Shown piece after piece: positions 16,449 through 16,831 of a DNA stretch of 64,000 nt. The DNA is taken from assembly GCA_964428845.1 (NCBI GenBank), contig CAYRZH010000001.1:138990-202989 (forward strand), read 5' to 3'. The position numbers were made by a program, and so were the translations under genes. How positions within the stretch are numbered: the first letter of the stretch is position 1; each line of letters starts with the position of its first letter. The stretch is from an uncultured Candidatus Saccharibacteria bacterium (GTDB lineage Bacteria > Patescibacteriota > Minisyncoccia > Phycocordibacterales > DATGWK01). The notes below the pieces were generated by a model that was given only the letters and a program-made list of their open reading frames with translations, ran no database searches and had not been told where the DNA came from.

Positions 16449-16488
16449 TCAATAAATAAAAAGAAAGGCAGCTCATGATGAGCTGCCC
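16449..16488 (-). terminator. strong rho-independent terminator on minus strand (gggcagctca-tca-tgagctgcc + T-rich run)
   Basis: 9-bp perfect stem followed (minus sense) by tttctttttatttatt. A second small hairpin aggact-a-agtcct lies at 16501-16513. Confidence 0.55.
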
Positions 16489-16504
16489 ATTTCCTCCTTT
16501 AGGA

Positions 16505-16702
16505 CTAAGTCCTTGGTCTGGATGCGCCCCGAAAGGGCACCCGAACCATGCGTGATTCGAACTCCACCTGGTCGGAAATGGCGACTCTTTTGGAGCGCCC
16601 CGACCAAGTGAACCCGTTCCGCCTAAGCAAGCGAGTAGCTTCGTCTGCCAGACGCTGCTCCTGATTGCTCAAGGGAACACGATGAGGTGAGAGGTGTTTC
16701 AT
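16505..16702 (-). CDS. 65-aa arginine-rich basic ORF inside a promoter-to-terminator unit (may instead be part of an ncRNA)
   Basis: The ORF is preceded by a structured leader whose helix pairs gtgtttcatc with gatgaaacac, enclosing the ATG. No recognisable protein family. Confidence 0.25.
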   Translation of the reverse strand: MKHLSPHRVPLSNQEQRLADEATRLLRRNGFTWSGRSKRVAISDQVEFESRMVRVPFRGASRPRT

Positions 16703-16795
16703 CTTTAACTGCCAGCGGGGATATTCTCATGAAATCCCGGCTGCGATGAAACACTGCACTGCGGAAACACCCCAACCACCTCATTTCATTGTCTG

Positions 16796-16831
16796 TGCGG
16801 TATAATAACGTATTATATATAACCTGTCAAG
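16796..16831 (-). promoter_or_regulatory. near-consensus sigma70 promoter on minus strand (TTGACA-17 bp-TATTAT)
   Basis: -35 at 16830..16825 and -10 at 16807..16802, with an exact 17-bp spacer. Predicted TSS ~16796, driving the ~340-nt unit that ends at the 16449-16488 terminator. Confidence 0.5.

Follow-up and report, generated by a model that had tools for sequence, protein, structure and literature searches.

A putative small-protein gene with an unusually structured mRNA, inserted beside a tRNA-Lys gene of an uncultured bacterium

A short interval on the minus strand of an uncultured bacterial contig raises the question of whether it specifies a protein or a non-coding RNA (ncRNA). The interval, positions 16449-16831, lies in a 64,000-nt stretch of contig CAYRZH010000001.1 (Candidatus Saccharibacteria in the deposited assembly), and this whole stretch is called the window here. 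A preliminary description of this DNA recognized a promoter, a folded leader, a 65-codon open reading frame (ORF) and a terminator, and hesitated between a riboregulated small-protein gene and a ~340-nt ncRNA whose ORF is coincidental. It proposed to decide by an Rfam scan and by a comparative alignment, in which conservation would be read at third codon positions and at paired positions. Our analysis shows, from comparative sequence evidence, that the interval is a real monocistronic protein-coding gene for a 65-residue basic protein, and its annotation should be a coding sequence (CDS) with a 5' untranslated region (UTR) rather than a small RNA. We consider it probable that the locus as a whole is a coding gene with its own promoter and terminator, structure-limited translation and a stable mRNA, acquired by insertion at a tRNA-Lys gene.

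The predicted transcription unit is compact (Table 1). The TTGACA-17-TATTAT promoter of the preliminary description is present and matches the sigma-70 consensus at 11 of 12 positions. A second promoter-like site overlaps it, and these two are the only 11/12 matches on either strand of the entire window. Transcription is predicted to start at ~16796. The rho-independent terminator noted about 340 nt downstream is also found: its stem-loop (16488-16466) has 10 pairs, six of them G-C, and is followed by TTCTTTTTAT. The terminator ends ~338 nt from the predicted start, with termination expected at ~16460. The 65-codon frame had been described as the only ORF, which is not correct, as frames of 53 and 44 aa exist on the same strand and frames of 38 and 32 aa on the opposite strand. 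Upstream of the ORF start, the duplex energy with the Shine-Dalgarno (SD) partner is -2.1 kcal/mol, which is background level. This absence of an SD sequence is not unusual here, because strong SD sites rarely precede the long ORFs of the window. We note that the strong SD motif A[AG]GGAGG occurs 11 times in the 64 kb and almost never before long ORFs. Strong SD sites seem to be little used in the lineage of the window, a point that matters for gene calling here.

By several quick signs the interval resembles an ncRNA. An ORF of 65 codons is at chance level, since 42% of shuffled versions of the unit contain one; its codon usage is atypical; it lacks an SD sequence; and the fold of the RNA is extreme, as described below. 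Searches with the single ORF gave the same impression: a word-indexed search of 5.8 billion proteins, an exact-sequence look-up and a six-seed scan of JGI metagenomes all returned nothing. At the nucleotide level, blastn against phages and plasmids gave merely a 22-nt chance match, no exact 19- or 22-mers were found in IMG/VR, and blastn against 80 syntenic Paceibacteria loci detected no similarity to the transcription unit. All three of these protein-level negatives were false negatives, overturned by an exhaustive phmmer search of 1.84 billion cluster representatives. This search found 23 small proteins (50-108 aa) at E < 1e-3, and the best match, P0122, has E = 2e-16 and 62% identity across all 65 residues. 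A profile search yielded 30 members, all annotated as 'hypothetical' and none with a Pfam domain. Three huge repetitive phmmer matches (P0121, P0143 and P0146) were rejected as low-complexity artefacts, and L102-L104 were rejected as chance matches. For ORFs so short and so diverged, a negative indexed search is no evidence of absence.

The comparison with the nearest relative bears directly on the coding question. The locus of P0122, here L086 (Paceibacterota, GCA_035438625.1), holds a gene (5073-5270, counted from an internal Met of P0122) that has the same length as the window ORF and aligns with it without gaps, at 58% nucleotide and 62% amino-acid identity. The differences at codon positions 1/2/3 number 20/18/44, and the proportions of nonsynonymous (pN) and synonymous (pS) differences are 0.285 and 0.84, the latter saturated. 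Some of the synonymous changes require two steps, AGG to CGA for example. In the other two frames, amino-acid identity is just 22%. By this codon-position pattern the ORF is coding, and the comparative alignment gave the third-position excess expected of a protein gene. Distant family members, moreover, start with canonical SD-ATG signals and have unstructured mRNAs.

The Rfam scan points the same way, as no housekeeping RNA matched the interval. At the gathering threshold, nothing besides four tRNAs was found in the window. At E <= 10, the region 16100-17250 gave just terminator-driven noise (sbrA, 21 bits with a gathering score of 45; L20_leader, 17 bits with a gathering score of 59). ARAGORN detected no transfer-messenger RNA (tmRNA), and no motifs of RNase P, tmRNA or signal recognition particle RNA were seen by eye. 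The view that this is a ~340-nt structured ncRNA with a coincidental 65-codon ORF is refuted by a family of ~30 proteins of 50-94 aa at 37-62% identity and by saturated synonymous sites beside a conserved protein, and we give it next to no credence.

The family includes proteins from Paceibacterota, Terrybacteria, Omnitrophica and unclassified metagenome-assembled genomes (MAGs). Its members share a core of ~50 residues, L..EATRLLR..G(Y/F)TWSGR.K..(V/I)...Q..FE.R(M/L)(V/I)..P..G.SR, with variable N-termini and basic tails. Columns A22, L26, G30, G35, Q45 and E49 are invariant, and T32 and F48 are among the invariant or near-invariant ones. The window ORF holds every core residue (A22, L26, G30, T32-W33-S34-G35-R36, Q45, F48-E49 and G59) and contains the peptides LADEATR, NGFTWSGR and VAISDQVEFESR. 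It belongs to the family by full-length similarity, by these core residues and by the substitution pattern of a translated frame. The protein has an isoelectric point (pI) of 11.9, a grand average of hydropathy (GRAVY) of -0.91 and 12 Arg among its 65 residues, with no hydrophobic segment. The AlphaFold2 model, made with a 31-sequence alignment, is a helical hairpin with a mean predicted local distance difference test (pLDDT) score of 81, and above 90 for residues 11-30. Helices 13-28 and 38-51 are joined by the invariant GFTWSGR loop, and the basic tail is less confident. These observations define an unannotated family of basic, predicted helical-hairpin proteins, largely restricted to the candidate phyla radiation (CPR) and Omnitrophica.

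The charge, the conserved aromatics and the fold class hint that the protein may bind nucleic acid, be it RNA, the ribosome or DNA. Pfam gave no match for the window ORF nor for any of 24 members tested. In a sequence profile search of the PDB, the sole match was an 18-residue RRM-like stretch with E = 0.3, and no ribosomal chain or ribosome factor was matched. RMF (PF04957) and bS21 (PF01165) were considered for their size, charge and GRSK stretch and were rejected, with hhalign probabilities of 0.2% and 0.1%, respectively.

The mRNA of this gene is predicted to be the most extreme structure in the window. For the 352-nt minus-strand RNA, the folding energy is -156.6 kcal/mol and the z-score against shuffles is -8.07, and the 337-nt transcript trimmed to the predicted ends has z = -6.4. 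For background, 80 control segments of the same length were tiled across both strands of the 64 kb, and their z-scores have a mean of -0.74, a standard deviation of 1.36 and a minimum of -4.33. The plus strand folds 23 kcal/mol less well than the minus strand. Such an advantage would be expected of a structure that operates in the minus-strand RNA and depends on G·U pairs. The CDS contributes to this structure, with z = -4.3 on its own. When its synonymous codons were permuted, 3/300 permutations reached the native stability and 297 fell short of it; for the CDS of L086, all 300 permutations were less stable than the native sequence. The CDS structure is therefore not a by-product of the protein sequence, as synonymous permutations fold less stably.

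A similar architecture is found in homologous loci. L086 has a TTGACA promoter, an 88-nt SD-less leader, the ORF, AAAGGAGGAAA directly after the stop codon, and a terminator. In its leader, GUGUUUCAU pairs with AUGAGUCAC, and an outer helix joins the 5' end to codons 6-9. L095 has TTGACA-17-TACATT, a 108-nt leader pairing with the AUG and codons 7-18, and then a terminator. The TTGACA -35 box is at the equivalent place in L086, L095 and L093, and equivalent terminators follow the homologues in L086, L095, L090 and L096. Whole-unit z-scores are -8.0 for L086 and -6.1 for L095; CDS-only z-scores are -4.2 for L086, -2.8 for L095 and -4.0 for L094. The leaders of the window, L086 and L095 are unalignable, except for GUGUUUCAU, which is common to the window and L086. 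Within the CDS, L086 retains 41 of the 65 window pairs in register, compared with 16-27 when the 3' partner is slid. Among 14 pairs changed on both sides between the two genes, nine still pair, mostly third position with third position. These predicted folds suggest that the mRNA structure has been kept across saturated synonymous divergence.

At the 5' end, the leader is predicted to fold back over the start of the ORF. The three nested helices of the preliminary description all exist: an outer helix (AUGAGGUG, 16784-16777, with CACCUCAU, 16689-16682), a second helix (GUGUUUCAUC, 16754-16745, with GAUGAAACAC, 16703-16694) and a third, apical helix (CAGCCGGGA, 16743-16735, with UCCCCGCUG, 16721-16713, and one C/C mismatch) that forms the apical hairpin 16743-16713. 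The fold so described has -41.4 kcal/mol and is 0.8 kcal/mol above the minimum free energy (MFE) fold of -42.2 kcal/mol, in which the partner of GAAACACCUC is not GUGUUUCAUC but a second copy, GGGGUGUUUC (16773-16764). Two alternative anti-start strands, GGGGUGUUUC and GUGUUUCAUC, compete for GAUGAAACACCUC (16703-16691), and the initiation-region strand opposite them is also written as GAUGAAACACC. The AUG (16702-16700), which had been placed within a helix, is inside the hairpin in both low-energy conformers. Opening the start region is calculated to require ~16 kcal/mol by MFE and 13.3 kcal/mol by ensemble (-12 to +13 single-stranded). For the homologues, the opening costs are 11.9 (L086), 12.2 (L095) and 16.7 kcal/mol (L094), and the start codons of L086, L095, L094 and L093 all fall in predicted helices, their unpaired probabilities being 0.0-0.16.

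A 2-codon mini upstream ORF (mini-uORF), AUG AAA UGA (16789-16781, minus strand), lies 7 nt from the predicted transcription start. It resembles the true start AUGAAACAC (AUGAAAC), with the mimic sequence AUGAAAUGA. In folds of nascent length (55-95 nt), the 5' AUGAAAU (16789-) pairs with the anti-start GUUUCAU (GUGUUUCAU), and the stable closed form appears at ~105 nt of transcript. This predicted pairing suggests that the AUG would be free when it emerges, giving a kinetic time window for translation. The start mimic of the mini-uORF is not evident in L086.

Conditional riboregulation, in which a riboswitch or RNA thermometer in the leader would expose the start codon in response to a signal, is another possible reading of the two mutually exclusive anti-start strands, which differ by 0.8 kcal/mol, and of the 5' start mimic that pairs with the anti-start strand in nascent-length folds. 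The gene upstream of the L086 homologue (4477-4893) weakly resembles Hsp20/alpha-crystallin (E = 0.003, short of the Pfam cut-off), and a stress-related context hinted at by this neighbour is possible but unsupported. Against such regulation, the AUG is inside the hairpin in both conformers, and its predicted unpaired probability rises merely from 0.30 at 10 °C through 0.44 at 37 °C to 0.51 at 55 °C. An RNA thermometer is unlikely because this accessibility is nearly independent of temperature, and with a hairpin of -42 kcal/mol it was rejected in silico. No riboswitch matches in Rfam, and no aptamer-like core is evident, because GUGUUUCAU in L086 is all that is conserved of the leader sequence. 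We regard conditional riboregulation as improbable. From the first alternative of the preliminary description, then, the small-protein gene with a start-occluding leader stands, given the family, the substitutions and the presence of such a leader in two homologous loci, and the labels of riboswitch and thermosensor are not supported.

Taken as a coding gene with structure-limited translation, the unit would work as follows. A near-consensus sigma-70 promoter would start the minus-strand transcript at ~16796, and the intrinsic terminator would end it at ~16460. The 94-nt SD-less leader would adopt two conformers of nearly equal energy, each folded back across the AUG and codons 1-7, and further long hairpins in the CDS would use synonymous positions. 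On these predicted folds, costly initiation would keep the translation rate low and limited by structure, an early, metastable hairpin at the 5' end may sequester the anti-start strand so that translation takes place mainly on nascent RNA, and the folded architecture may make the transcript long-lived. The product would be a two-helix hairpin protein with an invariant G-x-T-W-S-G-R loop and a basic tail, which may bind nucleic acid.

Several observations count against this account or soften it. The codon usage of the ORF falls below that of 99% of the real-gene windows of this genome. For the function of the protein there is no fold clue (Foldseek against the PDB and BFVD found nothing), no family clue (no match in NCBIfam, PHROG or PADLOC) and no conserved-neighbour clue, as neighbourhoods vary by genome: a copper-resistance region, a TrmB/asparaginase region, a 125-aa gene then metK, and a PDT region. 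The count of pairs shared with L086 is not significant, since 17.7% of synonymous permutations reach it. The helices are conserved with L086 alone, and in distant members in-register pairing is barely above slid controls. Conservation at paired positions, the other part of the proposed alignment, therefore holds as far as L086 and no further, and conserved CDS helices across the family were rejected as unsupported. The GC-rich members L087, L090 and L096 have ordinary mRNAs (z ~0) with ordinary SD sites, in operons such as 125-aa gene, family gene, metK. Extreme structure is thus not a trait of the whole family, because the mRNAs of these members are unstructured; the folds instead indicate a recurrent trait of the monocistronic members from AT-rich genomes. 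Finally, the opening cost at the start is just ~1.5 standard deviations over the genome mean (48 other window genes: median 7.4, standard deviation 3.9, maximum 16.9 kcal/mol), and four of these 48 genes are equally or more costly. As modelled, burial of the start codon appears real and moderate, in the top tenth, and is not a lock.

The same evidence bears on a dual-function or autoregulated unit, in which the protein binds the hairpins of its own mRNA or the transcript has a second role at the RNA level. Such a unit would account for selection on structure within the CDS beyond what the protein requires, for the compensatory third-position changes relative to L086, and for the recurrence of extreme structure in three lineages with unalignable leaders, and a very basic helical-hairpin protein is plausibly RNA-binding. 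We nevertheless think it unlikely, with a small but real chance of being right, as the helices are not conserved across the family, GC-rich members have no such structure, and high structure could merely serve mRNA stability.

Another shared element of the mRNA lies after the stop codon. The 11-mer AAAGGAGGAAA, a perfect complement of the anti-SD sequence, forms a duplex of -12 kcal/mol with the 16S 3' end, and downstream of it there is just a 5-codon ORF. The identical 11-mer is at the same place in L086 (5270-5280), where the remaining 3' UTR is unalignable. Neither the window gene nor its L086 homologue has an SD sequence at its own start, though both carry AAAGGAGGAAA. In two other members, L087 and L100, an SD sequence at the equivalent position serves a closely following downstream gene. 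AAAGGAGGAAA may be a relic, or it may be a functional site for 30S tethering or pausing.

We then consider how the gene came to its place. The window belongs to a CPR genome of the Paceibacteria/Parcubacteria. Its PolA is at most 61% identical to that of any GTDB species representative, and the best matches are all Paceibacterota/Parcubacteria MAGs. Between holA and the tRNA-Lys gene there is a 1,045-nt G+C-rich stretch (0.52-0.62, compared with 0.456 for the window) with no long ORF, and past the tRNA-Lys gene follow a DoxX-like gene (minus strand) and a SpoU methylase gene (plus strand). In the nearest relatives (L003, L048, L019, L016 and L006), the gap between holA and the opposite-strand tRNA-Lys gene is just 13-198 nt, and the window has ~850 extra bp that are absent from them. 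The tRNA-derived repeats that the preliminary description saw on both sides of the unit are real and belong to two blocks, B1 and B2, that flank the promoter-gene-terminator cassette. The copy of the tRNA 3' end in B1 is exact over 17/17 nt (16937-16921). The A2 part of B2 is 79-90% identical to A1 of B1, with a ~65-nt deletion. After B2 come ~180 nt that probably represent the original tRNA-holA spacer. Duplication of the tRNA 3' end is a known footprint of integration at tRNA genes (bioRxiv 10.1101/2022.07.05.498093, van der Gulik et al.), and a unique segment between two diverged block copies of ~135-200 nt fits a single-crossover insertion or a duplication. No integrase or recombinase was found in the element: ORFs within or overlapping 16064-17110 are at most 133 aa long and overlap the repeats or the tRNA, and those tested have no Pfam match.

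Relatives carry other cargo at the tRNA-Lys 3' flank, namely a 188-aa serine-hydrolase-like gene between holA and tRNA-Lys in L081-L085 and, at the same spot, a 137-aa ORF without a Pfam match in L001 (9456-9869) and L005 (9258-9671). This flank is a variable insertion hot spot, because the cargo differs between relatives and the closest carry none. Judged from these sequence comparisons, the cassette seems to have been acquired in the lineage of the window within an insertion of ~850 bp at the tRNA-Lys 3' end. Since other family members are not linked to tRNA genes, mobility is a feature of the window copy and not of the family.

The position inside a lineage-specific insertion adjoining a tRNA gene, together with a small ORF, an initiation-occluding fold-back leader and a very structured, presumably stable mRNA, would also suit the toxin gene of a type I toxin-antitoxin-like module on the remnant of a mobile element, a label that had been offered for this locus. 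The label does not fit the product, which is hydrophilic and basic and has no hydrophobic helix. Orthologues reside in housekeeping operons with normal SD sites. In the sequence, no antisense promoter or overlapping small RNA was found, and none of the plus-strand promoter-like sites overlaps the transcript (the sole one, 16789-16816, points away). PADLOC gave no match. We consider a type I toxin very improbable.

Table 1 Positions of features in the window and of A-type elements in other loci
Feature	Position	Strand	Remarks
polA	12905-15334	plus	
holA	15336-16064	plus	
Block B2: TGGGCGGACACGA copy (16378-16366, 13 nt), spacer, A2, decayed tRNA-end copy (16260-16244)	16244..16378	minus	
Promoter-gene-terminator cassette between B1 and B2	16920-16379	minus	
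Intrinsic terminator: 10-bp stem GGGCAGCUCA/UGAGCUGCC(U), 3-nt loop, U-tract	16456..16488	minus	
AAAGGAGGAAA, perfect anti-SD complement between stop codon and terminator	16490..16500	minus	
Coding sequence, MKHLSPHRVPLSNQEQRLADEATRLLRRNGFTWSGRSKRVAISDQVEFESRMVRVPFRGASRPRT	16505..16702	minus	65 aa, pI 11.9; 'TWSGR' small-protein family
Leader hairpin enclosing start codon and codons 1-7	16682..16787	minus	
5' leader, ~94 nt	16703..16796	minus	without SD sequence
Sigma-70-type promoter: TTGACA (16830-16825), 17-nt spacer, TATTAT (16807-16802)	16802..16830	minus	11/12 consensus match
Second promoter-like site, TTCACA-17-TATAAT, overlapping the first	16812..16840	minus	11/12 consensus match
Block B1: tRNA-Lys 3' end and trailer (TGGGCGGACACGA), spacer, A1, tRNA 3'-end copy	16921..17118	minus	
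tRNA-Lys(UUU)	17110..17183	minus	anchor of insertion
A-type element A1	16921-17083	minus	
A-type element A2	16244-16339	minus	
A-type element, L027	9405-9590		
A-type element, L056	10393-10520		
A-type element, L023	10916-11137		
A-type element, L095	1914-2034		

The A parts of the two blocks have counterparts elsewhere. In several Paceibacteria, elements of this type, ~100-190 nt long, immediately follow tRNA genes. They start with an inverted copy of the 3' end of the host tRNA, interrupted by a 7-9-bp hairpin (AGCAAGC...GCTTGC), and end with a direct copy of it; the repeat in L056 is 26 nt long and includes the trailer. A1 (16987-16953) and the L023 element, which is at a different tRNA, have a common 35-nt core, GAGGCGGTGCCCAG..CGA.G..GAGCGACGGCGA. 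As RNA, the ends of these elements would mimic a tRNA acceptor stem, and no Rfam match was found. The A-type elements could be remnants of attachment (att) sites, miniature tRNA-targeting elements or tRNA-like RNAs.

A second small unit was noticed on the minus strand at 16060-16247. It consists of a promoter-like sequence, TTGGCA-17-TACAAT (16247-16219), and a hairpin with a U-run that resembles a terminator, GAAGGGAGAGCCCUUC (~16090-16065), and its ~150-nt RNA would be modestly structured (z = -2.1). This unit may be no more than the tRNA-Lys/holA spacer in its native form, with a terminator that is convergent. Complementarities between the unit of the 65-aa gene and the second unit or holA were judged to be at chance level. 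Around other family members, small adjoining genes have no Pfam match. In L094, a hammerhead-like core (CUGAUGAG-stem-CGAAA, 512-547) lies ~170 nt upstream of member P0152; it scores 19.4 bits against Rfam Hammerhead_HH9 (gathering 52, E = 0.9), which is not significant.

It is tempting to combine the pieces into a self-contained ribonucleoprotein module, in which the protein binds the long hairpins of its own mRNA, for autoregulation or another function of the RNA, AAAGGAGGAAA recruits 30S to a message that otherwise has no SD sequence, and the cassette moves from genome to genome via the tRNA-end/'A' element. We regard this combination as a long shot. If true, the 'A' element of CPR bacteria would represent a novel type of miniature element, either a tRNA-targeting att or a tRNA-like one.

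The locus is instructive for annotation. The quick signs (ORF length, codon usage, lack of an SD sequence, RNA structure, word-index search and seed scan) wrongly pointed to an ncRNA, and an exhaustive profile search together with the codon-position pattern settles the coding question in favor of a conserved protein. The gene defines an unannotated family of ~50-65-aa basic proteins, and the small proteomes of CPR and Omnitrophica are still full of unknowns. It also offers a natural example of mRNA structure, the CDS included, that seems to be maintained across saturated synonymous divergence. Worth keeping from this locus are the CPR-centred protein family, the extreme mRNA structure and the conserved anti-SD-complementary 11-mer AAAGGAGGAAA.

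Several known systems resemble parts of this locus. The insert is like tRNA-targeted integrative elements in that it is lineage-specific DNA flanked by direct repeats of the tRNA-Lys 3' end. It differs from them in being just ~850 bp long and having no integrase, and in its larger repeat unit ('tRNA-end + A element'), in which A holds an inverted copy of the tRNA end as well. Among structured mRNAs, those of the type I toxins hok, tisB and aapA1 also combine a small ORF with a 5' fold-back over the initiation region, and they are highly structured, long-lived and perhaps translated from one folding state. The window gene is unlike them in its basic hydrophilic product, which is not a membrane peptide, and in that no antisense RNA gene was recognized, and its orthologues are unlike them in their housekeeping operons and ordinary SD sites. 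RNA thermometers such as ROSE, fourU and the cspA 5' UTR share a U-rich strand (here GUGUUUCAU) that pairs with the initiation region, whereas the window leader is too stable (~-42 kcal/mol), nearly temperature-independent and without an Rfam match.

Also comparable are the MS2 maturation-protein gene and autoregulatory ribosomal-protein leaders, where an untranslated leader likewise folds over the start codon. As in the kinetic control of MS2, a metastable early hairpin is predicted here that could give a short period of translation on the nascent RNA, and as with autoregulatory ribosomal-protein leaders, the product is a small basic protein. The window leader is unlike both in having no sequence or structural homology to such leaders in Rfam. 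The rmf gene of Gammaproteobacteria is similarly monocistronic, with its own promoter and terminator, and encodes a very basic two-helix protein of ~55 aa with a superficially similar G-x-x-G-R-S-K stretch. The rmf mRNA is unusually stable through UTR structure. The family described here differs from RMF in that hhalign gives 0.2%, no member matches Pfam RMF, and its range is CPR and Omnitrophica. In kind, the object is an ordinary one, a monocistronic small-protein gene with a structured 5' UTR.

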